64,000 nucleotides of DNA from an uncultured Spirochaetota bacterium (lineage in GTDB: Bacteria > Spirochaetota > Spirochaetia > SZUA-6 > Fen-1364): positions 1 to 64,000 of the forward strand of contig CAVUXE010000099.1 in the NCBI GenBank assembly GCA_963745235.1, in the 5' to 3' direction. Made by a program: the position numbers and the translations under genes. Positions 1-15,821 of the stretch are shown here, piece by piece. The notes beneath the pieces were generated by a model that worked only from the letters and a program-made list of their open reading frames with translations, searched no databases and was not told the DNA's origin. Position 1 is the first letter of the stretch. Each line of letters starts with the position of its first letter.

Positions 1-1944
1 AGCGAGAGTTCGAAGTCTTCGTCCCCGGTCGGGTGTGCCTCCTTGGGGAGCATTCGGATTGGGCGGGGGGCCACAGGCGGATCAATTCCGCAATCGTTCC
101 CGGCTACGCAATCATCTGCGGCACCAACCAGGGGATTCGAGCGCGCGTCCATTCCCATCCCGACAGGCTGATCTTTCATTCCTCCCTGACCGCTGACGGA
201 ATGCGGCAGGAGTTCGACATCCCCATGCAAGCCGGATGCCCTGCTTGCGGAAGCAAAAAAAGGCGGCTTCTTCAGCTACGTTGCCGGCGTGGCATACCAG
301 GTCCTCACGCACAACACGGTGAAGGGCCTGGTGATAGACAACTACGCCACGGACTTGCCGGTGAAAAAGGGGTTGTCCTCCAGCGCCGCCGTGTGCGTGC
401 TCACCGCCCGGGCCTTCAACCTCGCATATGACCTGAAGATGACGGTGCGCGGTGAGATGGACTACGCCTACAGAGGTGAGATCACCACGCCGTCACGATG
501 CGGCAGGATGGACCAGGGCTGCGCGTACGGCTCGCGGCCCGTGATGATGGAGTTCGACGGAGACTCCCTGGATGTTTCCGAGCTTGCCTGCGGGGCGGAT
601 TTCCACTTCATCATCGCCGACCTCAAGGCCACCAAGGATACCGTCAAGATTCTTGCGGACTTGAACAAGGCGTTTCCATTCGCTGAGAACGACATCGAAC
701 GGGGCGTCCAGGAATACCTTGGCCGCATCAACCAGAGGATCCTTTCGGAGGCCGCAGAAGCTCTCCGGGCGGTGATGCGCAGCGTATCGGCGCTCTCATG
801 ACGGAGGCGCAGGCCAATTTCGACAAGTATGCGGGGCCCGCGTGTCCGGAGCAGCTTCGATCTCCGGTCCTTCACAAGGCGCTGTCCTTGCCAGCCCTTG
901 CCCCGCATGTGCATGGCGGAAAGGGCGTGGGCAGCCAGGGAGATGGCTCTGTTCAGTTCCTGGCGCGTGATGAGAAAAGCAGAGAAGAAGCCATCCGCAT
1001 CCTGGAAAAGGAGCTCGGGCTCTCCTGCTTGCGCCTGACGGTTCCCAAGAGCAAGAAGATACGCAAGGCGGTCATTACAGCAGCCGGCTACGGCACGAGG
1101 CTTTTCCCCATGACGGCCGCGGTACGCAAGGAGTTCCTCCCCGTCGTGGATCAAAAGGGCCGCATGCTTCCCCTTATCCTGGCGAACGTGGAAGAGGCCA
1201 TCGAGGCGGGCATAGAAGAAATCTGCATCATCATCCAGGAGCAGGACCGCAAGTTCTTCCAGGACTTCTTCGGGCAGAACATCAGTCCTGACCTCTACGA
1301 CAAGCTCTCAGCCCGGGCAAGAGAAAGCCTCTCCACCATCAAGGAGTTAGGCAGGAAGGTCGTGCTGCGGGCGCAGGAGGAGCAGAGGGGTCTTGGCCAT
1401 GCTGTCTACCAGGTCCGAGAGTGGGTCGGCAACGAGCCGTTCCTCCTGATCCTTGGTGATCATCTCTTTGTGCAGGAAGGGCGCAAAGGGGTGCGCACGG
1501 CAGCTGGTGGAAAGGTTCGAAGAGCTGGATACGGCGGTCATCGGGCTGCAGCCAACCGCGGAATCTGACGTCGGCAGGTTCGGGACCGTTGGAGGCGCAT
1601 GGGTTGACGGAGAGGACCGGCGGGACCTCATCGACATCGCCACGCTCAAGGAAAAACCGGCCGTTGAGTTTGCCGAAGAGTACCTAAGGATTGACGGCCT
1701 TCCCGAAAAGACCTATCTGACGGTCTTCGGGCTCTACCTTCTGACGCCGCGGGTCTTTCAAGAGCTTCAGAGAAGCATCCAGGAATGCGGAGGGGAGAGC
1801 CGGGAGATCGAGCTCACAAATGCGCTTGATGCGCTGCGTCGAAAGGAAAGGATTCTCGGGTTGATTATCGAAGGGCAGAAAGTCGATATCGGGCTCCCGT
1901 CGGGATACCTGGACGGCCTGCTGAAGTACGCGGGTCGCGCATGA
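1..1944 (+). CDS. Bifunctional GHMP-family sugar kinase / NDP-sugar pyrophosphorylase (GalU-like); 5' end at or just outside window; about 3 apparent frameshifts (~240, ~775, ~1480)
   Basis: Merged ORFs 33-431, 289-801, 798-1568, 1453-1944. GHMP motifs PGRVCLLGEHSDW, LPVKKGLSSSAA, CGRMDQ, GGKGVGSQGDG; then KAVITAAGYGTRLFP..KEFLP, QRGLGHAV, LGDH, EKP, EIELTNAL (GalU-like). Confidence 0.8.
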
Positions 1945-2657
1945 TCCTTGTAAAGCGCCGCCTGCGAGGCATCCCGTATGTGCAGAAATGGTTTGCGCAT
2001 GAATCTGCGCCTGCTGACGCGTTCAGCGTTGCAATCTACTACCAGTACCTCGGGGCCAGGAGGCCTGCATTCCTTCTCAGGCAGAGCTTCTCAGCGGTCC
2101 AGATAGATCTTTCGCGTGAGGAAGACGCGGTCCTGGCGGACATGCAGAAGAACGTCCGCTACAAGATCCGTCGGGCGGAGAAAGACGACCTGAGGTGGGA
2201 AGTCGAAGTTGCGCCGAAGGACTTCGCGGATTTCCATGAGGCGTTTGCCCACAAGAAGGGAATTGAGGGAGTGGACCCTGGCCGGCTCGAGTCGTTCGGC
2301 GCATCCCTGGTTCTCTCCCGTGTCGCGCTGGGCCCGCAGGTCCTGGCCCAGCACGCGCATCTTGTGGACACGGGGGAGAGCAGGGCGCGCATGCTCTATT
2401 CTTCTTCAGCCCGGTTCGATGGCGTTGACGCTTCCCTGGTCGGACGCGCGAACTGCTGGTCCCACTGGAAGGAAATGCTGCACTTCAAGGAGCTCGGGAT
2501 CCGCACGTACGACCTTGGAGGCATTGCCACGGACACAAAGGACCGGACCCTTTCGGGTATCAACGAGTTCAAGCTGGGATTCGGCGGAAAAGTCGTTCGC
2601 GAAGATCATTGGCTGTCTCCACTGTACTTCCTTGCATCTCTTGCAGGAACACGGTGA
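1941..2657 (+). CDS. FemAB/GNAT-like protein (peptidoglycan-bridge acyltransferase family)
   Basis: IDLS..EDAVLADMQKNVRYKIRRAEK, YDLGG, GINEFKLGFGG motifs; ATGA overlap with upstream gene. Confidence 0.7.
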   Translation: MILVKRRLRGIPYVQKWFAHESAPADAFSVAIYYQYLGARRPAFLLRQSFSAVQIDLSREEDAVLADMQKNVRYKIRRAEKDDLRWEVEVAPKDFADFHEAFAHKKGIEGVDPGRLESFGASLVLSRVALGPQVLAQHAHLVDTGESRARMLYSSSARFDGVDASLVGRANCWSHWKEMLHFKELGIRTYDLGGIATDTKDRTLSGINEFKLGFGGKVVREDHWLSPLYFLASLAGTR

Positions 2658-3810
2658 GCCCGGCCGTTCTCCTGATCAACAGCCTCGGCACTGGCGGCGC
2701 AGAGAGAGCGGTAGCCGCCGCGGCGGCCTGGCTGGCCACCCGTCATGAAATCAGAATTGTCTGCCTGGAGCGCCACAGCTCTCAGATGGCCCTGCCATCG
2801 AATATCCCGATCAGCTACCTTTCCAACCTGCACGAATCCTCCAGCGCCATCCTCAAGTTGATGGCTCTCCCTTTCCTCGCCTTCCGTCTCTCCTCCAGCT
2901 CTCTCCCGTTTCCGCGCAAGCGCCGTCATGAGCCATTTGTTCCGGGCCAACTTCGTCAACGCGCTGGCCCGCGTTCTGGCCGGCTCCCGGCACCGGGTGG
3001 TGCTCGTGAATCACACGCGGATCAGCCGGCTCGAGGACAGAGGGAATCCAAGGACGGATCAACTGGGCACTCTGTCGGCTGCTTTACCCGAGGGCAGACC
3101 TTGTGGCCAGCGTTTCCAAGGGTGCCACCGCGGAGTGCGCGCGCCTCCTGGGGCTGCCTCAGGGAAAGGCAATCACGCTCTACGATCCGATCCAAACAGC
3201 CGTCTCCAGCCTGCCTTTTGAGGGGAAGGCCAGACAGCGCTTCATTGCAGCGGTTGGGCGACTGGTCGCCTTGAAGCGGTTCGAAGATCTGATAGACGCG
3301 TTCAGCGCAATCGCCACGGACTTTCCCGGGCTGCAATTGAAGATTGTCGGAGACGGCCCGGAGAGACACCGCCTCGAGCAGCGGGCGGCAGCCTCAGGCG
3401 CCGCGAAACGGATTCACTTCCTGGGCCAGCGCGCGGAGCCGATGAAAGAGATCGCTGGATGCGACGCCTTCGTCTCGACTTCCGCGGTTGAAGGCTTTGG
3501 CATGGCGATCGTGGAGTCGCTTGGTGCAGGGGTCCCGGTCATATCCGCTGATTGTCCATATGGTCCGCGGGAGATCCTCGCTCCATCTACTGACAGCTCT
3601 GTTCTCCTGGGAGAGGGCGCCGATGTCGAGATTTCCGAGTATGGTATCCTCTATCCCGTGGGTTCGCTCAAGGCACTCAAGAAAGCCCTGGAGCTCATCC
3701 TGAACAATGCGGCTCTGAGAGAGGAGCTCGGCCGCAAGGGACCGGCCCGGGCGGCGGATTTCTCCGTGGAACGCTCTACAGCCGAATATGAGAGACTTCT
3801 CTTTGCGTAA
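2654..3810 (+). CDS. GT4 glycosyltransferase (PglJ-like); about 2 frameshifts (~2910, ~3050)
   Basis: INSLGTGGAER N-terminus, VGRLVALKRF, EGFGMAIVES, DCPYGPREIL; merged ORFs 2609-3274, 2928-3221, 3103-3810. Confidence 0.8.
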
Positions 3811-7066: not shown

Positions 7067-10008
7067 ATGGCTATCCTTGACACGTGCATCATCACGGCAT
7101 CAGACGACCGGCAGGCAGAAGTCTTCAGGAAGCTCCTGGACCGCCGGATCCAGCGCGGCTTGTATCCGAAGGAAATTGATTTCCGCGTGTATTCAGATCC
7201 TCCCGCCGGGCGCGCAGGATCAGGCGGCGGCACCATCTGGGCTCTCCTGACTCTACTCAGAGAGGAAGGGATGGCTCCGGCAGAAGAGGCAGCATCCCAG
7301 CTTTCTTCGCGGCGAATCCTCGTCATTCATGCCGGCGGTGAGTCCCGCAGGCTGCCCTGCTACGTTCCCGAGGGGAAGCTCTTTGCGCCCGTGCCTGCCC
7401 CCTCCAGCTCGTTCGTCCCGCCCGTTGTGCTGGACGTCGAGCTTTCGCTCTTCCTGCGGTATCCCTGGAGAGACGGCGAGCTCCTGGTCACCTCCGGCGA
7501 CGCCCTCGTTGACTTCAACACCGACCTTCTGAATCTGCCTGAGGGTCCTCTCTGCGGTTTCTCCGCTCCCGAATCTTTCCAACGGGGATCACGGCATGGT
7601 GTGTTCGCTTTTGACCCTGTCACGGGCGCGGTCCGCGACTATCATCAGAAAGCTTCGCCGGAGTTTCTTGCGCGTGAAGCACGGATCGAGGGCACCGAGT
7701 CCTGCGCCGTGGACCTGGGGCCGGTCTCTTTCCGCGGCCAGGCCCTCCGTGCACTCATTGCAAGCGCGGTTCAGCCCCTTCCCGGAGGAAGCATCGCGGA
7801 GCAGGTAGGCGAGGGGACGCTGCCTATAGATCTTTACCTGGAGCTTCTCACGGCATGTCTTGCGGGCCTGGACAAGAAGTCGTACCTGGCCAGGCTCAAG
7901 GGCCGGAGCTCCGCTTCAGCGGAGGTTCTTGAGGTTCTCTTCGAGGCCTTTCACCCCTGCGGGCTTTCCGGGGCCCTGGTCAAGCAGGCTTCTTTCATCC
8001 ATTTCGGAAGCATCGCGGAGTTCCCCCAAGCCTGTCGGGAGCTTCGCGCCGGCGGGCTTCTCCCGTTCTACGCCCTTGCCCATGAAGAGCTGGTCCCGGA
8101 AGCGGGTGCAAGCCTGGTCAGATTCAACTGTCTGGACGCGAAGATCGAGACGGGGTCCGGAGGCTCGTGCATAGAGGATTGCCGAAACGTCACAATCTCC
8201 TGTGAAGGTGAGAATCTGCTGGTTGGCCTCCGACGCCTGGCAATTGACGATGTGTTGCCGCGCGGATTCTGTATCGATGAACGAAGATTTGAAGAACAGG
8301 GAACGCCGGTGACCCTGCGGCTGGTCTACCACAGGGATGACTCGTTCAAGCCGCAGAAAGGTCCGGATTCCCTTGTTTTCTGCGGCCTGCCTTTGAAGGG
8401 GTGGCTGTCTGCACGGAATCTTTGCCTTGATGATGTTTTCCCTTCAGGGCTCCAGACTGGACCTCTATAAGGCGTTGCTGTTCCCTGCAGGAGCTGGCGC
8501 AGAGCAGCTGAAAGGCTACTGGCGGGTGCCTGCGGACAAAGCGGCGTGGGCCGCCTGGTTCCGTTCTTCCCGCAGGTACTGCATCGCCGACGCCAACGCT
8601 CTTACCGATGCAGCGGTCCGGGACCGCGAGCGGGCGGACGCCAGGCGGCATGAAATTTCCCGCGGCCTGGAAAAGGGAGGCTTCTTTGCCGTTCCCGCCT
8701 TGGAGATGGCGGAGCTGGTGGCGGATGGGTTGAACCCGTTGAACCTCGTCACTCGATGCTTGCAGACCGATGAGCCTCTCCTCAAAGCCTACAGGAGCGC
8801 CACGCTGAGGGCGGCGCACGTCAACGGCGTGCCTCCCGTGGACAGGGTGGAGGTACCGTTTGCGCCTCGCGCCGCGGGTGGGCCGCTTCGATGCGCGGTC
8901 AAGCTCGATCAGATTGTGTGGGCGCGCTCACCGGTCCGCCTGGACCTTGCGGGCGGCTGGACCGACACCCCCCCCTACACCAACCGATACGGCGGCGCGG
9001 TGCTGAATGTCGCAGTGGACCTGAACGGCCAGAGTCCCATCCAGGTCTTCGTGCGGCGGACGCCTGAGCCGCGCCTTACGCTGCATTCGATTGACCTTGG
9101 GGTCACGGAAGTCCTTGCTGATACCCGCGGCCTGCGCGCCTACAGGGACCCGGGAAGCCCGTTTGCGCTTCCCCGCGCCGCCCTTGTCCTGCTGGGTCTG
9201 GGCTCAGGGGAGCCTGACGGCGCACCCCTTGCGCCCGCCTTCGAAGCGGCAGGGGGCGGCATGGAGCTCACCCTTCTGTGCGCCGTTCCCAAGGGCTCAG
9301 GTCTCGGCACTTCATCCGTGCTTGCCGGAACCATTCTGGCCGCCCTCGAGCGCTTCTACGGCATGGCGGCGCCGCGGGAGGAGCTTTTCCTGCAGGTCCT
9401 GGAGATCGAGCAGATGCTTACAACGGGTGGCGGCTGGCAGGACCAGATCGGCGGCCTGGTGGGAGGCGTCAAGTACGTCGAGTCCCGGGCCGCCCTGAAG
9501 CCGCGGCCCGTCGTCCGCCAGCTGGATCCGTGGACATTCGAAAGTCCTGAGTGCACGGAGCGGATGACCCTGTTCTATACAGGCGTCACGAGGCTTGCAA
9601 AGGGCATCCTCAAAGACGTTGTAGATCGGGTCAACGGAATGGAAAGATCGTACCTCTTCACGCACAACCGCATCGCGGAGCTTGCAAAGGAGGGAAGCGA
9701 TGCAATCTCGCTCCGCGACCTGGCGGGGCTTTCCCGCGTGATCCGGGAGTCATTCAGGGAGAACATGTTCATTCACCAGAGCACCACGAACGAAGAGATA
9801 GAGGCGGTGATCCAGGCCACATCGCCTTTCTACTCCGGGAATGAAACTCCTCGGGGCCGGCGGGGGAGGGTTCGCGCTCTTTGTCTCTCCGGACGCACCG
9901 AAGGCCCGCCTGCTGCGGTCCCTCCTGGCGGAGCGCTTCGAGAACGAGAGGGCGCGGCTGGTGGATTTTTCCCTCAACAAGCGAGGGTTGGAAGTGACGG
10001 TCAGCTGA
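7067..10008 (+). CDS. fkp: Bifunctional L-fucose-1-P guanylyltransferase / L-fucokinase (Fkp-like); frameshifts ~8440 and ~9840
   Basis: N-terminal DPPAGRAGSGGGT and HAGGESRRLPCY..GKLF; C-terminal SPVRLDLAGGWTDTPPY, PKGSGLGTSS, TTGGGWQDQ. Shifted frame from 9841 reads MKLLGAGGGGF and stops at TGA 10006-10008. Confidence 0.8.
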
Positions 10009-12428
10009 TGCAGGTCACAAGCTCACAGGAACGTCGCCAGGTCAGATCCATTCTCATCTTCTTTGCAATAGTCTTTGTGCTTGGGTGCATCCTGGACTTC
10101 GTCCTGATGAACCGCTACAAGGAAATTGCGCTCGGATCAATGGGAGACCTGCTCATTGACGCTCTGCCACAGGGCAGGGTGTTCCGCGCGGTTCTTTCCT
10201 CCATGGGCTGGTTGGACGCCGTTGTCATTGGCGGCCTCTTCCTTCTTCTCGTCTGGGTCATCGTTACGCAGGTCCGGCACAAGACTCTTTCCACGTTCTG
10301 CGAATGGACCTTAGCCTCCGAGCGGCGCACCAGGCTGGTCATCCTGGGAATGGCCATTCTTCTGCTCAAACCGATTCTGGCCCCCGGGGAGCCGTACTTC
10401 CAAGACGCGCCGAGCCACGTATCCCGGGCGTGGTTCACGTACGTCAACTTCATCCAGGGCTATCTCTTCCCGAGCTTCAATAACTACTACCACGCCGGTT
10501 TCGCGATGTTCTCTCACTATGGCTTCCTGTTCTCCGTCCTGGCGGGCGGACTGAACCTCCTGTTTCGAAACATCTACCTCTCTGTCAAGCTCGTGATGAT
10601 GGCGCTGGGCGTTGCCAGTGCATTCCTGTTCTACGCACTGGGCAAGCAGGTCACAAAGGATCGCGCCAGCGGTCTTCTGCTCTCTCTCATCATCACGGGG
10701 AGCAGCATCTTCATTTCCACGATGTTCTGGGGCGGGGTTCTTTTCTTCCCGCTCATTTTTGCGGGCGCCGGCCTTCTTCTGCTTGCCTTCGAACGATTCC
10801 TGGCAGGCACGTGGCCCCTGTACAGGGCCATCTTCATGACAGCCCTTGCGGCAAACATCCTCATAGCCACTCACCTGGGCTACGCCGCCCAGATCTTCCT
10901 GTTCTTCGTGGTGTACGCGATAGCCCGGCTTGTTTCGGAGAAACCTGAGGCGTGGAAGAGCTTCACCGTATGGGCCGCGGGAAGCCTGGGCATTGCGCTG
11001 GTGCTTTCCGCGTTCGTCGTGCTCCCGACGTTCCTGGACATCAAGGACGTCAACTTTTACAAGGCGTTTCCCTACTCCGACGTGAACACGTACAAGTTCT
11101 GGCATGAGAAGCTGTGGCAGTTGCTCGTTCCGCGACCCTTCTACCTCAACTACCTTGATTACCTGGGCCTTGCGCTCCTGGGGATCGCCGTCTGGCTGGC
11201 AGTATCCGCGGTCCGCCGTCCTGACCGCCGGCTTGCCGCCCATATCGCAACAATCGCTTCAACCATCGTCGTCCTGGGGTACAGCCGCAACTCGATCATC
11301 CTGCTGTTTGCAATCGGGCTGTTTGCTTGCCAGGCCTACGGCGTCCTGGTGACGCAGAGGGACCAGAAGCGCGCCGTTTTTGGCGTGCTGGTGCTGCTTC
11401 TGCTTGCGGACTCGCTTCTGTTCAACAACTTCAACACCTACCGGGATGGCGCGTTTGAGCATCGGCTGTATGACAAGTTGGCACTCGAACCTTGGGGGAC
11501 AAAGCTTGGGGTCGTGAAGGCCAATACCCTTCATGGCGGGAACAAGCCGGACGACAATGTTTACATATCGCCGTGGCTCAAGGTCACGGGCCAGCTTGTC
11601 GTCCAACCGAACGCAATCATGCTGGAGGCAAACAAGCAGGCGCTCTACCAGTTCCTGGCGACCCACGACCTCCTTGGCCAGGACATGCTGAATGGCAGGA
11701 TAACAGTGCCGACTCTGAAGGCGCTGGACCTCGTAGGCGTGCGATACCTGACCTTCCATACCGCGGATGCGTACTACCTGCCACCGGTGGAGTCGGATGG
11801 TCCCGTCATTCGAAACTCCTCGGGCCCGTGGATCGAGCTCCCGGGCACCTTTCCCATGCTCTTCGCGGAGCGCGTGACGAGTTTGAACGATCTGGCGGCC
11901 CAGAACCCCATTCTGGCCTACCGGCAGACCTTTGAAGCTGACGATGTCTCTCACGAGCGCGCCCCACTTCATTACAGGCTGCAGGCGGGAGACTATTTGC
12001 ATAAGCTTGTGGATCTCACCGGACCTTCCCTGGACCGGCCGATTGCGGACCAATTCGTCATGCGGGTTCCGATCACCGAAGATCTCACTTCGCCCGGCCC
12101 GGCGTCTCTGGAAGTATCTTCCTTCTTTGTGGACGCGCAGAAAGTGGTGGCGGATTTCACCACGGACAGGCCTGGATTTGTCAGGATCCCTTTTGGCTGG
12201 TTCCCATGGCACACCATTCGACTGGATGGCGCGCCGGCCGTGGCGTATCCGGACGTAATGAACATGATTTGCGTGCGCGTGGGGGCTCCTGGATCTCATC
12301 ACCTGCAGGTGGGCCCCTCGATCTCTCCAGCAAAGAGGACGGGGGCATGGATTACCGGGCTGAGCTTTGTTCTTTTCGCAGGAATCCTTCTGTTGGCTGA
12401 ATTGATTCGAAAGAAGGACCGTGCCTGA
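10008..12428 (+). CDS. Multi-pass membrane protein, GT-C / YfhO / PTPS-related membrane glycosyltransferase-like
   Basis: Starts MQVTSS at TGATG overlap inside the chimeric ORF 8427-12428. Many TM segments, QDAPSH loop motif, extracytoplasmic C-terminal domain with WFPWH and a final TM. Confidence 0.6.
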   Translation: MQVTSSQERRQVRSILIFFAIVFVLGCILDFVLMNRYKEIALGSMGDLLIDALPQGRVFRAVLSSMGWLDAVVIGGLFLLLVWVIVTQVRHKTLSTFCEWTLASERRTRLVILGMAILLLKPILAPGEPYFQDAPSHVSRAWFTYVNFIQGYLFPSFNNYYHAGFAMFSHYGFLFSVLAGGLNLLFRNIYLSVKLVMMALGVASAFLFYALGKQVTKDRASGLLLSLIITGSSIFISTMFWGGVLFFPLIFAGAGLLLLAFERFLAGTWPLYRAIFMTALAANILIATHLGYAAQIFLFFVVYAIARLVSEKPEAWKSFTVWAAGSLGIALVLSAFVVLPTFLDIKDVNFYKAFPYSDVNTYKFWHEKLWQLLVPRPFYLNYLDYLGLALLGIAVWLAVSAVRRPDRRLAAHIATIASTIVVLGYSRNSIILLFAIGLFACQAYGVLVTQRDQKRAVFGVLVLLLLADSLLFNNFNTYRDGAFEHRLYDKLALEPWGTKLGVVKANTLHGGNKPDDNVYISPWLKVTGQLVVQPNAIMLEANKQALYQFLATHDLLGQDMLNGRITVPTLKALDLVGVRYLTFHTADAYYLPPVESDGPVIRNSSGPWIELPGTFPMLFAERVTSLNDLAAQNPILAYRQTFEADDVSHERAPLHYRLQAGDYLHKLVDLTGPSLDRPIADQFVMRVPITEDLTSPGPASLEVSSFFVDAQKVVADFTTDRPGFVRIPFGWFPWHTIRLDGAPAVAYPDVMNMICVRVGAPGSHHLQVGPSISPAKRTGAWITGLSFVLFAGILLLAELIRKKDRA

Positions 12429-12452: not shown

Positions 12453-12800
12453 TTATCTCCCAAGTACGACATCGATTCCGTGGACGATTTGCGCGAATTG
12501 TTTGGCTGTGAGTCGTCCAACGCGCTCGCTGAGAAACGAACGGTCAACCGCAACGATTTGGGTAGCGTTCGCGACGGCGTCTTTTTTCAAGCCTGTGACC
12601 TTGGCCTGAAGAAGCGTATTACCAGGGGCGTCAGCCCAGACAAGATTACTTGTCAGAGGCACGCACACAACAGTCGCGATGCGGCTCTGATTGAGATGGT
12701 TCCCTTGGACAACGACTACAGGGCGACGAAATCCCGGTTCAGATCCAGCGGGCTCCGGCAGGTCCGCCCACCAGACTTCTCCTTGCGAGACTTCTACCAC
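12453..12800 (-). other. mazF: MazF/PemK family toxin
   Basis: QGEVWWADL.EPAGSEPGFRRPVVVVQ, VPLTSN, ANATQIVAVDR; overlaps antitoxin stop. Confidence 0.9.
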
Positions 12801-13042
12801 TCGGTATGCTCGAACACCCGGCGCACCGCACGGGCGAGAAACGGGTCAGGGCCAGGCTCTCCCAGTTTCTCAACCACGCGATTCATGGCCTCCGTTACCT
12901 CCTCTGGCGTATGTCTCGCCAAGTACTCAGTCAAAGCTTGTGCATAGAGTTGGCTTCGGGGTTTCCGCGTCCTTTTCGCGTATCGTTCTGCAGCGCGGAA
13001 CACATCATCAGGCAGAGACACCGCCGTCTTTGCTTTTTTCAT
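12794..13042 (-). CDS. RHH/CopG-type antitoxin (MazE role); native ATG at 14988-14986 is separated from the body by the group II intron
   Basis: MKKAKTAVSLPDDVFRAAERYAKR..RSQLYAQAL..EW; directly upstream of mazF. Confidence 0.85.
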   Translation of the reverse strand: MKKAKTAVSLPDDVFRAAERYAKRTRKPRSQLYAQALTEYLARHTPEEVTEAMNRVVEKLGEPGPDPFLARAVRRVFEHTEW

Positions 13043-14985
13043 TGGTCGATAGCTGGTGCGGTATCGCTCAGAGCGACCCGTTCCCAGCACCTCCTTTCAA
13101 ACTGTGCGTGCCGTTTTCCGGCACACAGCTTACCGATGAGTTCTCCTGACCGTGCTTGCGCGGAGTGGCTGCCTGGGGATATCGCGTAGTCCCCCTCAGT
13201 CGCTGCAGGCCCATCTCGTACAGGCGTTTCTGGGGCCATCGGTCGAAACGGAAGCGCGTTCGCTGTCCGCCCCGTCGCCACTGCCATTGGAGCACACGGC
13301 CGTACACGTAGTCATCCACTCGGTTGAACTCTCGGTCCGCGTTGCCCGTTCGGAAGTAGTTGCCCCATCCACGAAGCACCGGGTTTAGCTTGTCGATCAG
13401 CTCCCCTATGCCCTTCGCTTGCCTTCCTCGCGCCTCGGTGATCTCATGCACGCGGGATCGGATTCGCTTCATAGCCTTCGGCGACGGCCAGCGCTGCACG
13501 AAATGCCAGCGTGGGTTGCGTTGAATGCTCCTGCACTTGCGCACCGTCCACCCAAGAAACGTAAAGCCCTCCTTACCCAGTGCCAGATTCACTACGCGCG
13601 TTTTCTCGGGATGCATTTCCAGCCCCAGGCGTTCCATCACAATCTTTACGCGCCTGAGGGCTTCCTTGCACTGCGACTTGTTCTTGCACAGCACCACGAA
13701 GTCGTCAGCGTAACGCACCAGGATTCCAAGGTGTTTGCACTTGCTCTCCCAGATGCGATCCAGAAAGCCAAGGTAGATGTTGGACAACAGCGGCGAGATC
13801 ACTCCGCCTTGCGGGGTTCCCGCAAGCGTTTCCCTCACCGTCCCATCTTCCATCACGCCCGCCGCCAGCCACTGACCGATCAGTTTCAGGACTCGCCTGT
13901 CCGAGATCCGCTCCTTCACCAACACCATGAGCTTCCCATGGTCGATGCTTCCGAAGTAATCCCGAATATCGGCGTCCAGCACCCAGTTATGCCCTCGGTT
14001 GCCCGCCTCGCGAATGACTTCCATTGCCTGCGTCGCTCCCCTTCTCGGTCGAAACCCCCAACTGCACGGTTGAAAGTCGGCTTCAAATATGGGTTCGATC
14101 ACCAGCTTGGTTGCCATCTGCACCACGCGATCCCTCACCGTCGGTATCCCCAGCGGCCTCTGCCTCCCGTCCCCCTTGGGGATGTATCGCCGTCTCACCG
14201 GTGACGGTCGATACCTGCCTGCCTTCAGGACGTTCTGTATCTCCTTCAGATACTCTCCCGCCCCTCGCTCTTCGATGTCGCGGATGGACACCTCATCCAC
14301 CCCCGCGGCACCTCCGTTCGCCTTCACCCGTCTCCACGCCTCCAGCAGGACGTCACCCCGCCAGATCCGGTCATACAGCGCGTGAAAACGTCGGCTCCTG
14401 CTCCGCTTGGCACATGTCCATAGCCGTCGCTGGAGTTCTCGCACTTTTTCTTCGGGGTTGTTGGGTCTTTCGACCATGCCCTCGCGCTTACCTCCACGCC
14501 CCAGCACACTCAAAGCAGGGTCCCTTCCCTCCAGCGGCTTCTCACCGCCTTCTCAGGTACTACGAACCCCTCGGACTCCCTCCTGACTCCGCGCGCTTTC
14601 GGTCTCCCCCTTATACGCGTGGTCTTTGCCCGACGTGGGCCGCCAGGGAGGGCCTCTCGTGTTCCCTACCATTCCGTCACAACGTGCCGCCGCCAATACC
14701 CCGAGGGCGTCCAACGTCCACTTCGGATTCGGTCCGTTGTCTGTTGCCTTCGCCGTGGCATGATCGGCTCGGCCACCCTGAACACCTTTCGGCTGATACT
14801 CTGACGAGGCTTGCTCGGCGTTCACTCGCGTTGCGGCCCGCTGTGTTGCTTCCTCCTTGGAGGCTTTTGTCGGTCCGCTCGGTCAGAGACATTTCGGCCT
14901 CTGACTGGACCCTGCTACCGGGCGCTCCGACGCTTACCCGGGCGGAACTTTCATCCGCTGGAACGGTACGGCTTTCACGACGCAC
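13040..14985 (-). mobile_element. Group II intron (about 1946 nt), complete
   Basis: 5' GTGCG at 14985; EBS1 loop CATGCCA (14762-14756); DIII GTAGTACC..GAAG..GGAGGGAAGGGAC; DV TAAGCTGTGTGCCGGAAAACGGCACGCACAGTTTG (13132-13098, AGC triad); DVI with putative branch A at 13046; 3' end ...ACCAATG. Confidence 0.9.
13068..14477 (-). CDS. ltrA: Group II intron reverse transcriptase/maturase without endonuclease domain
   Basis: GAAGVD, YIPK..RPLGIPTVRDRVVQ, GTPQGGVISPLLSNIYL, RYADDF, FLG, LNPVLRGWGNYF (X domain); no HNH; ORF continues through DV. Confidence 0.95.
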   Translation of the reverse strand: MVERPNNPEEKVRELQRRLWTCAKRSRSRRFHALYDRIWRGDVLLEAWRRVKANGGAAGVDEVSIRDIEERGAGEYLKEIQNVLKAGRYRPSPVRRRYIPKGDGRQRPLGIPTVRDRVVQMATKLVIEPIFEADFQPCSWGFRPRRGATQAMEVIREAGNRGHNWVLDADIRDYFGSIDHGKLMVLVKERISDRRVLKLIGQWLAAGVMEDGTVRETLAGTPQGGVISPLLSNIYLGFLDRIWESKCKHLGILVRYADDFVVLCKNKSQCKEALRRVKIVMERLGLEMHPEKTRVVNLALGKEGFTFLGWTVRKCRSIQRNPRWHFVQRWPSPKAMKRIRSRVHEITEARGRQAKGIGELIDKLNPVLRGWGNYFRTGNADREFNRVDDYVYGRVLQWQWRRGGQRTRFRFDRWPQKRLYEMGLQRLRGTTRYPQAATPRKHGQENSSVSCVPENGTHSLKGGAGNGSL

Positions 14986-14994
14986 CATACCATT

Positions 14995-15023
14995 AGTATA
15001 ACCAAGGGATAGACTCCCGACAA
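14995..15023 (-). promoter_or_regulatory. Sigma70-type promoter of mazEF-type operon (leaderless)
   Basis: TTGTCG (15023-15018), 17 nt, TATACT (15000-14995), 6 nt, ATG (14988); imperfect ATAC-N5-GTAT inverted repeat over the start. Confidence 0.65.
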
Positions 15024-15100
15024 GCTGGCAAAAGTGGCCTCAGGTCTTGCGCCTCCACACCAGCTTATTGTGCGCAGGCTGCCGATAACCTCGTCTTCTT

Positions 15101-15490
15101 TCATGGCGATGGAAGGGTTGTTGAAATCGCCAAGTCAGGAATCTGCTTGAAGTGCTCGTCAGAAGAGATGACGGTAGCGCCGGCCCGCATGGCACAACAG
15201 GCAATTACCAAGTCTGTAAGCGGCAGCACAACCCCACGGCGATCCAAAGTCCAGGCAAGATGGGCGGTTTCATCCCACGTTGTGTTGTCTATGTCTACCG
15301 AGATCATTGTTTCAAAGAGCTCACGCATCCTCGCGCGTATCTTTTCACGCACAACGCCGCGGAGCACTTCGCAGCGGATGACGCCGCAGCAAAGGACTTC
15401 TTCATGAAGAAGCCACGGGCGTAAAGCTTGCACTGGATCTTCTCGTGCGCGCAGAAGGCCAATGTAGAAAGTCGAATCGACAAGAAGCAC
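15101..15490 (-). CDS. vapC: VapC PIN-domain toxin
   Basis: LLVDST, EVLRG, DLVIACCA, SSDEHF acidic PIN motifs. Confidence 0.88.
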   Translation of the reverse strand: MLLVDSTFYIGLLRAREDPVQALRPWLLHEEVLCCGVIRCEVLRGVVREKIRARMRELFETMISVDIDNTTWDETAHLAWTLDRRGVVLPLTDLVIACCAMRAGATVISSDEHFKQIPDLAISTTLPSP

Positions 15491-15495
15491 TATGG

Positions 15496-15723
15496 TTACC
15501 CAGCCGGTATTTCCCGCGCGCGCAGCGCGCGAAGGTCGTACCGCGGGTCAACAGCGTTCTCGAGATCTTTGGGAGCCAAGGATGTTGAGAGGAGTTTGTT
15601 GCGCATCGCGCTTCGCTCGGCAGCGCTTAAGGCGTAGTTTAAGGCTTTTGTTTTGGTCTTTATGCCTGTGAGTTTCATGAGCCTTGAAAGCTTCTTCTCG
15701 TCAATCTCTACGGTCATCTTCAT
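15496..15723 (-). CDS. vapB: VapB antitoxin
   Basis: MKMTVEIDEKKL..LTGIKTKTKALNYAL; immediately upstream of vapC. Confidence 0.82.
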   Translation of the reverse strand: MKMTVEIDEKKLSRLMKLTGIKTKTKALNYALSAAERSAMRNKLLSTSLAPKDLENAVDPRYDLRALRAREIPAG

Positions 15724-15729
15724 ACGACT

Positions 15730-15765
15730 ATTATATGGCAAGATGACCCATACGTCAATATGGGT
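15730..15765 (-). promoter_or_regulatory. vapBC promoter with palindromic operator
   Basis: TTGACG (15758-15753), 17 nt, TATAAT (15735-15730), 6 nt, ATG; perfect inverted repeat ACCCATA-N6-TATGGGT (15746-15765) flanks the -35. Confidence 0.75.
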
Positions 15766-15821
15766 AGGCTTGCGTTTGCTTCGGTCTACTTGTCCAGCGG
15801 GCCATGGGCTGTCCATCCAAG

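Follow-up and report, generated by a model that had tools for sequence, protein, structure and literature searches.

Group II introns tied to translation signals are known from a specialised clade of subgroup IIB1 (Avi.groEL, EcKTE56.groEL; Michel et al., 2007, summarised in Gomes et al., 2025, PMC12584367; this and the other published systems are described here from excerpts of the cited papers). The members of this proteobacterial clade stand at initiation and termination codons with housekeeping genes as targets, encode a CL1 reverse transcriptase (RT) with a C-terminal endonuclease domain, and carry a subdomain Ia of 300–700 nt at domain I's base, and the process of targeting and colonisation is called ‘currently unknown’ (PMC12584367). 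In the groEL introns, insertion occurs between positions 2 and 3 of the stop codon, and intron bases restore the stop, changing UAA to UAG (PMC12584367). Here, we describe a group II intron that stands directly behind the start codon of an antitoxin-like gene and itself ends in AUG; it lies in a window of 64,000 nucleotides (contig CAVUXE010000099.1, positions 1 to 64,000, assembly GCA_963745235.1) from an uncultured Spirochaetota bacterium. We consider it likely that this is an intact, recently mobile group II intron without an endonuclease domain, and that it belongs to a monophyletic lineage, spread over several phyla, that is specialised for insertion where the start codon of a leaderless gene meets codon 2.

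Three further published groups bear on this locus. Subgroup IIC introns insert after intrinsic terminators, reading a DNA hairpin and a very short intron-binding site 1 (IBS1) and lacking exon-binding site 2 (EBS2) (PMC12584367; PMC4028801). The IIC-attC introns carry outward-facing promoters that offset the separation of the downstream gene from its expression signals (PMC3001079). In introns of the B.c.I4 type, a 3' extension puts the splice site 53–70 nt downstream of domain VI (PMC2691827; PMC4028801).

The inserted unit and its lineage

At the window locus, where all features lie on the minus strand unless stated otherwise, the intron (GUGCG...CCAAUG) comprises 1946 nt at 13040–14985, with bounds that are given by three copies in the genome, by intron-less homologues of the host genes, and by the junctions of the lineage. 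The 5' exon terminates in ...TATACTAATGGTATG, its last three bases being the host start codon ATG (14988–14986), and GTGCG opens the intron at 14985. At the 3' junction, the intron reads ...CTATCGACCAATG and is followed by AAAAAAGCAAAG..., which leads into an 82-codon antitoxin-like open reading frame (ORF); the 3' exon (12794–13039) holds this ORF from codon 2 (KKAKTAVSLPDD...) to the stop. The terminal AUG of the intron (13040–13042) is in frame with this codon 2. The antitoxin protein has no Pfam match; its homologues in relatives begin with MKTA[IV]S.

The genome carries three copies of the intron, with 0–5 differences between the intron bodies and with the RT ORF open in all of them. Copy 2 differs from the window copy by 1 base in 1946, and copy 3 differs at five positions within the intron and in the final base, which is T in place of G13040, so that this copy ends in ATT; the sequence common to the three thus stops at CCAAT and is followed by G, G and T, respectively. 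The host of copy 2 is an epimerase gene, and in the intron-less epimerase homologues that could be read (seven of eleven loci), a single ATG is found in all seven, in the context ATG AAR GCN CTN (MKALF[IV]GGTG), preceded by TAnnCT-N6 in six. The intron-less antitoxin homologues likewise have one ATG only (6/6, TTATAC[TC]-N6-ATG AAR AC), and in five of the six, TTGAC[AG] stands 17 nt upstream. Since the intron-less genes have one ATG, the DNA gained is GTGCG...CCAATG, the full 1946 nt, inserted after the host ATG. In related strains, the ends of metagenome contigs reveal two additional insertion sites of the window's intron, one with the intron behind TATACT-N6-GTG and the other with the intron before an in-frame MERIGIVGFG, and the near-identical copies at different sites suggest that the intron is mobile.

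The observation behind the original prediction for this locus, namely a start-codon intron that ends in AUG, is thereby confirmed. The predicted feature at 13040–14988 is indeed an intron, the last three positions of which belong to the exon ATG, leaving 13040–14985 as the intron proper; the single ATG of the epimerase and antitoxin homologues agrees with the claim that the terminal ATG is part of the intron. The claimed pairing of the EBS1 loop CAUGCCA (14762–14756) with UGGUAUG is found with 7/7 pairs, including one G-U, and the sequence bears out the coordinates proposed for the terminal ATG (13042–13040), for the C that opens the junction between domains II and III (J2/3; 14573), and for A13046 as the candidate branch point. 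The statement that introns inserting at translation signals exist holds as well, as the IIB1 clade at initiation and termination codons demonstrates (PMC12584367).

A search with the RT in one genome per species returned 232 relatives; 80 loci were analysed, and more were taken from the window's own genus. At the 48 5' junctions of the lineage that have GTGCG, the intron is preceded by ATG in 45 rows and by GTG, GCG and AGG in one each, the last in a truncated copy, which places the insertion directly after a start codon in 46 rows (45 ATG and one GTG). Together with the three copies of the window's genome, these junctions lie well outside what chance would give. The distinct 3' ends read ...ACCAATG in 26/32, whereas four end in ACG (L066, L067, L076 and L084) and two in ATT. 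Read from the terminal triplet, 35 of 39 rows have an open frame of no fewer than 52 codons, and the four exceptions are contig ends or the truncated copy. These downstream frames start like normal N-termini, with sequences such as MKALFIGGTG and MSNQYVVTGGAGFIG, Rossmann motifs, or signal peptides. At locus L078, the upstream triplet is GTG, yet the intron ends in ATG, which fits an upstream triplet that belongs to the host and a downstream triplet that belongs to the intron. Codon 2 is variable even after identical introns (c, c, t, t, a, t and t in L068–L075), and therefore the 3' exon is not read.

In a quick maximum-likelihood tree of 50 RTs, which remained from 59 rows after removal of those with stops, with N, shorter than 400 aa or with duplicate sequences, all ATG-ended introns fall into one clade of 26 rows (SH-aLRT 97), and canonical-ended introns occupy two other clades. 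By record title, the hosts are Spirochaetota (closest), Acidobacteriota, Planctomycetota, Pseudomonadota, Myxococcota, Actinomycetota and others, represented almost exclusively by metagenome-assembled genomes (MAGs). An acidobacterial-type member on a contig of a MAG titled Arcobacter (L074) has the 5' exon ending in GCG, which might reflect misbinning or an insertion off target. Three of the ACG-ended copies (L066, L067, L076) stand before one transposase-like ORF (RDLVILF[IV]H...), and intron and host element may travel together. Nested introns were also seen: at L031/L048/L039 (G008:C13), another group II intron, with an RT of 41% identity, has inserted into a lineage member's RT ORF, and at L080 and L081, a second intron starting with GTGTGTCCAGCG follows directly after domain V.

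The window copy has the parts of a group II intron in order. Its 5' end GUGCG (14985–14981) meets the GUGYG rule, and GTGCG[TC]C[GC]TG is conserved in the 48 junction rows. The domain I core matches the Rfam family group-II-D1D4-4 (RF02003) at 14826–14960 with 96 bits (gathering threshold 49, E 5.8e-21), beginning 25 nt from the 5' end, and the distance from the 5' end to the RT ORF is about 470–510 nt. J2/3 is CGA (14571–14573), with C14573 as its first base, termed gamma. The ORF in domain IV (13068–14513) encodes 481 aa from a TTG, with a likely start at the ATG at 14477; its product has RVT_1 (6e-37) and GIIM, the group II maturase domain (3.9e-17), and a YADD motif, and its closest solved structures in the PDB are group II intron reverse transcriptases. 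In this protein, RVT_1 and GIIM are the only domain matches, with neither HNH nor endonuclease among them, and it ends about 60 aa past the maturase domain. Domain V lies at 13099–13131, with the AGC triad at 13130–13128 (sequence and RF00029 alignment), and domain VI at 13044–13094, where RNAfold gives two basal G-C pairs, an unpaired A just 5' of CC as the candidate branch point (A13046), and a 4-nt tail AAUG.

Downstream of the interrupted antitoxin gene, and overlapping its end, is a PemK/MazF-type toxin gene (12453–12800; PF02452, 4.6e-24). Directly upstream of this intron-bearing antitoxin/PemK pair, a VapB-like antitoxin and a PIN-domain toxin form another pair (15101–15816), so that two toxin–antitoxin modules stand in tandem. 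On the plus strand, a 1333-codon ORF (8427–12428) appears by eye to have a sugar-kinase-like N-terminal part and a large multi-pass membrane domain in the remainder.

The 3' splice site compared with a sister clade

In group II introns, the base gamma pairs with the last base of the intron, and the rule for the 3' end is AY, an A followed by a pyrimidine. The inserted unit of the window, which ends in UG, departs from this rule, and a sister clade, whose RT is about 50% identical to that of the ATG lineage, indicates how this departure may have been accommodated. The sister introns end in AU or AC, canonically as UAU (...CUCUACUCUAU; ...CUACUCUAU), whereas the ATG lineage ends in ...CUACCAAUG. 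The region of J2/3 reads ...GCAGUC-AGA in all eight aligned members of the sister clade and ...GGGAGUC-CGA in all 14 aligned members of the ATG lineage, and thus gamma and the last base are A and U in the former, C and G in the latter. After the bulged A of domain VI, the sister clade has three pairs and a 3-nt tail, the ATG lineage two pairs and a 4-nt tail, and the branch A is the 7th base from the end in the sister clade, a distance that is kept in the ATG lineage only with G as the last base. Because gamma pairs with the last intron base, the alignment shows a covariation at this pair that reads as a compensated change between the two clades. In the two T-ended copies, gamma is still C, and the pair is broken. 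One of them is copy 3 of the window's genome (G000, contig C54; L003, about 1516–3462), which ends in ATT with gamma still C; the same G-to-T change at the 3' end is seen in a degenerate copy in another genome (G034:C6), whose RT has three TGA stops.

A more conventional boundary would be a canonical intron end at ...CCAAU; the 3' exon would then begin with the following G (or T), and the ATG would be in frame by coincidence. Such an end would satisfy the AY rule, and it coincides with the point at which the sequence common to the three copies stops. It would also agree with the match to the domain V–VI family RF00029 (13041–13133), which stops at U13041, the canonical AY position; this match, which has high posterior probability in domain V, scores 36.4 bits, just below the gathering threshold of 40 (E 5.5e-05), and reaches U13041 only by way of two deleted model positions. 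However, the intron-less homologues read ATG AAR and not ATGG AAR, and a boundary at CCAAT would shift every host ORF by +1, at all eight examined sites and across the junction rows of the lineage. Furthermore, the branch A would then be 6th from the end as opposed to 7th in the sister clade, and a gamma of C would face U, in contrast to the A and U of the sister clade. We therefore regard the CCAAU boundary as very improbable and retain an intron end behind the terminal AUG. As reverse splicing inserts exactly the RNA that was excised, the 3' splice site would lie after the G of this AUG, and we infer that the excised intron ends in AUG.

These comparisons support, at the DNA and comparative level, the interpretation that had been offered in the original prediction. 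Its homing to start codons is reflected in the ATG or, in one row, GTG that precedes GTGCG, and in host ORFs that are the downstream frames. Its pairing of gamma C with a terminal G is matched by CGA in 14/14 lineage members against AGA in 8/8 members of the sister clade with its U-ended introns, and its branch A at the 7th position from the end has the same distance in that clade. The expectation that all homologues share an exon ending in ATG, an intron ending in ATG, and gamma C holds for gamma (14/14) and for the majority of exons (45/48) and introns (26/32); the GTG, GCG and AGG exons and the ACG and ATT ends depart from it. Homologues away from start codons were found, though only in the sister clade, outside the lineage. 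In that clade (L100–L134), the 5' flank, which reads ...GTAGTATTGATGT before the junction and GTGCGTCCAGC after it, is conserved across many Bacillota genomes, and the sites do not end in ATG; the conserved flank suggests that the sister introns home to a conserved, probably mobile, sequence.

Leaderless-type promoter-start sites and the two guide loops

The host promoter at the window locus is of the sigma-70 type, with a -35-like hexamer TTGTCG (15018–15023) and, after a spacer of 17 nt, the -10 hexamer TATACT (14995–15000); at 9/12 matches, it is the sole such site within 12900–15200. Just 6 nt lie between the -10 hexamer and the host ATG, and therefore there is no space for a ribosome-binding site. 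Both guides of the intron fall onto this module. The EBS2 loop GAGUAU (14796–14801, in the context GUCA-NNNNNN-CAGCCGAAAGG in an alignment of 47 lineage members) forms 5/6 pairs with IBS2 AUACUA (14999–14994), and EBS1 (14756–14762; sequence and alignment) pairs fully with IBS1 UGGUAUG (14986–14992), of which the host ATG forms the last three bases.

The same module recurs across the lineage; neither such modules nor a pairing of EBS2 with the -10 box figured in the original prediction. In 46 unique 5' flanks, a TANNNT hexamer stands 6 nt before the start in 28, 7–8 nt before it in 11, and 4, 9 or 10 nt before it in four, and is missing in three, which have near matches; the base counts follow the profile typical of a -10 box (T at -15, 31 flanks; A at -14, 35; T at -10, 34). 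By comparison, 3.4% of the 8238 long first-ATG ORFs of the genome, a crude set that includes spurious frames, have TANNNT at 5–8 nt, and 23.5% have a Shine-Dalgarno-like motif. With only 3.4% of long ORFs bearing the module, the leaderless-type sites are not a reflection of leaderless genes throughout the genome; rather, insertion at such modules would come about because EBS2 is a second guide that reads the -10 hexamer.

The pairing partners change together. EBS2 covaries with the site bases -14 to -9, as in GAGUAU with ATACTC (L062 and copy 3), CAGUAU with ATACTG (L106), AAGUGU with ACACTT (L075, L126), UAUUUU with AAAATA (L060), CAUCGU with ACGATG (L076), and AAUUAU with ATAATT (L119). Across 45 unique sites, the mean is 5.00 of 6 EBS2/IBS2 pairs against 4.19 +/- 0.11 when sites are reassigned among introns, and none of 5000 such shuffles reaches the observed value, though counts of this kind overstate independence, as related introns share their guides; different sites of one intron are separate insertion events. 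EBS1 consists of CAU, which pairs with ATG, and four variable bases, which pair with the four bases before it, and for these (EBS1 positions 4–7 against -4 to -7), the mean is 2.36 of 4 pairs against 1.95 +/- 0.07 in the shuffles, again with 0/5000 reaching the observed value. Position 2 of EBS2 is A and position 6 is U in 13/16 distinct loops (42/45 sites), the exceptions being the more distant L093, L094 and L097, and these two bases face the T and A that define the -10 box. The standard arrangement of the two sites, with one base separating IBS2 from IBS1, matches the spacing between a -10 box and a leaderless start. Although the T at -15 takes no part in the EBS2 pairing, it is conserved, which fits a promoter and not a requirement of the guide; together with the hexamers that are kept in intron-less homologues, it therefore points to real promoter elements that are read by the intron.

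The tie to leaderless starts could also arise without targeting, if introns inserted at many ATG triplets and survived, or were transcribed, only at leaderless starts. In favour of this, some sites pair poorly with EBS1 outside the AUG (copy 2 has 4/7 pairs). However, EBS2 covaries with the -10 hexamer, its A and U facing the T and A of the hexamer, and the hexamers beside identical introns agree in the half that matches the guide, such as TA[GC]ACT for EBS2 AAGUGU; the shared half-hexamer and the covariation speak for recognition and not for survival, and we consider untargeted insertion improbable. Recognition of the promoter-start module by both guides thus remains our preferred explanation of the sites.

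Two observations concern the frames and signals that the intron itself brings to this module. In 16/32 distinct 3' ends, all from an acidobacterial sub-branch (L059, L060, L063, L077, L085 and L102 among them), the 3' strand of domain VI contains TANNNT 6–7 nt before the terminal ATG, as in CTAAAATCTACCAATG. These ends resemble a leaderless promoter-start module and might act on the host gene as an outward-facing promoter. As a general explanation of the AUG end, an intron-borne TAnnnT-N6-ATG was rejected, since it is confined to these 16 ends of one sub-branch and is absent from the window's intron. At the other end of the intron, the frame opened by the host ATG (14677–14988) is open for 103 codons into the ribozyme, through EBS2 and EBS1, and for 161–162 codons in many acidobacterial members, and if unspliced RNA were translated in leaderless fashion, ribosomes would pass through domain I.

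Proposed mechanism and relation to known introns

We propose that the ribonucleoprotein locates a -10 box followed by ATG through base pairing, EBS2 with the -10 hexamer and EBS1 with the ATG, and that the intron would then reverse-splice after the ATG and be copied into DNA. In introns that lack an endonuclease domain, priming probably depends on host replication. After insertion, the host promoter would fire about 3 nt upstream of the intron, which would thereby capture transcription, and splicing after the terminal G would rebuild the original leaderless mRNA with AUG and codon 2. In a transcript that starts at the A of ATG, the 5' exon would be 3 nt long and held by three base pairs, and exon ligation should therefore be fragile. 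This fragility offers a rationale for a start codon at the intron end, directly before codon 2: in unspliced RNA, the terminal AUG would keep a start codon in this position. The 3' end would have departed from AY, gamma would have become C in place of A and so matched the terminal G, and the branch A would have stayed 7 nt from the end. As a backup start in unspliced RNA, the terminal AUG may have a self-compensating role, but this is the weakest link of the proposal.

Several points weigh against this reading, besides the end of the RF00029 match. No contig joining the exons was found in three peat metatranscriptome runs and one DNA run (12700–15300); metatranscriptome contigs cover the intron interior, and one crosses the 3' junction unspliced. 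Contigs of this kind cannot show RNA ends, and the alignment of a spliced leaderless mRNA would be unbroken from the terminal ATG onward, indistinguishable from that of unspliced RNA. That the sites are leaderless would follow from the promoter geometry and its conservation in intron-less homologues. No Shine-Dalgarno sequence or other ribosome-binding site precedes the terminal AUG, which makes translation from an AUG inside a long structured RNA uncertain. Finally, copies that end in ACG or ATT persist, and the terminal AUG is thus not indispensable for persistence.

The last two points would also suit a terminal AUG that serves the ribozyme or its mobility and not translation, either in defining the 3' splice site without an EBS3–IBS3 pairing or in mimicking the AUG-ended 5' exon, with the in-frame start as a by-product. 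The variation of codon 2 among identical copies is in line with this, as pairing with the first exon base cannot then define the 3' splice site. However, the triplet is exactly a start codon and exactly in frame each time, and besides gamma, no intron segment pairing with the terminal AUG was found, although no test for one was made. We consider a role confined to the ribozyme or mobility unlikely, while giving it appreciable weight. The missing spliced RNA in the metatranscriptome contigs might, in turn, be taken to mean that the window copy is a dead relic that merely disrupts the antitoxin gene. This is scarcely credible: the window copy and copy 2 are nearly identical over their whole length, the RT ORF is intact with its YADD motif, domains V and VI are present, EBS1 and EBS2 match their sites, and related strains have the intron at the two further sites seen in metagenome contigs.

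An active intron at a leaderless start thus remains the preferred reading, and in its fullest form, which we put forward tentatively, the guides would have evolved for the only parts common to all leaderless starts, namely the AUG and, in the -10 box, the invariant A and T, so that any leaderless gene could be invaded; the host promoter would then drive the intron with a 5' exon of 3 nt, and the 3' site would have been rewired, from AY to UG and with gamma from A to C, so that the host protein is still made if ligation fails, with the acidobacterial 3' end rebuilding a whole TAnnnT-N6-ATG module.

Full-text literature searches returned no account of group II introns that sit at leaderless starts, pair with -10 boxes or end in AUG, though an earlier mention may exist. 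The review of Zimmerly and Semper (2015) does not mention start codon, ATG or initiation, nor does the main text of Toro and Martinez-Abarca (2013), as distinct from its supplementary boundary consensus, mention start codon, ATG, IBS1 or promoter; the start-codon passages of Mohr et al. (2010) refer to the intron's own ORF. The lineage would be the first of group II introns for which an RNA-guided rule of homing to translation starts has been worked out. It would indicate that a 3' splice site can depart from the AY rule when the gamma–gamma' pair changes in a compensated manner, it raises the question of whether a group II ribozyme can ligate exons when the 5' exon is only pppAUG, and it would link the ecology of a retroelement to the expression of leaderless genes. 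The pairing of EBS2 with the -10 box and of EBS1 with ATG, taken as a guide rule, could also be used for predicting leaderless promoters in uncultured phyla.

Each of the described systems shares a part of this picture. Like the B.c.I4-type introns, the window intron has a non-canonical 3' splice site relative to domain VI; unlike in those introns, the site keeps its normal distance of 7 nt from the branch A, and only the identity of the last bases is altered (PMC2691827; PMC4028801). The IIC-attC introns compensate the separated downstream gene by a promoter, whereas the window intron would do so by a regenerated start codon; the acidobacterial TAnnnT-N6-ATG end, which is absent from the window's intron, may be analogous to the IIC-attC promoter (PMC3001079). 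With subgroup IIC, the lineage shares a generic gene-boundary signal as a target and little or no use of the 3' exon; however, it has two base-pairing guides, including a covarying EBS2, and a promoter-start target, and the window intron is not a subgroup IIC intron. As to RT classes, classes E and F comprise bacterial, IIB-like introns that lack an endonuclease, and class F includes the Solibacter intron So.us.I2 (Toro and Martinez-Abarca, 2013; PMC3552965), and with many lineage members from Bryobacterales MAGs, membership in class F is a lead only. Closest in logic is the IIB1 clade, which is likewise a monophyletic group II lineage that is tied to translation signals and regenerates a codon (PMC12584367). 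Nevertheless, the window intron has neither the endonuclease domain nor the 300–700 nt subdomain Ia of that clade, and its lineage would target any leaderless gene through EBS2 and the -10 box and ends in UG and not in AY. Because the endonuclease-bearing RT and subdomain Ia are both lacking, the lineage of the window intron is distinct from the IIB1 clade as described in these excerpts, set apart from it by two defining features rather than by a CL1 phylogeny, and the niche at translation signals that the two have in common is a convergent one.

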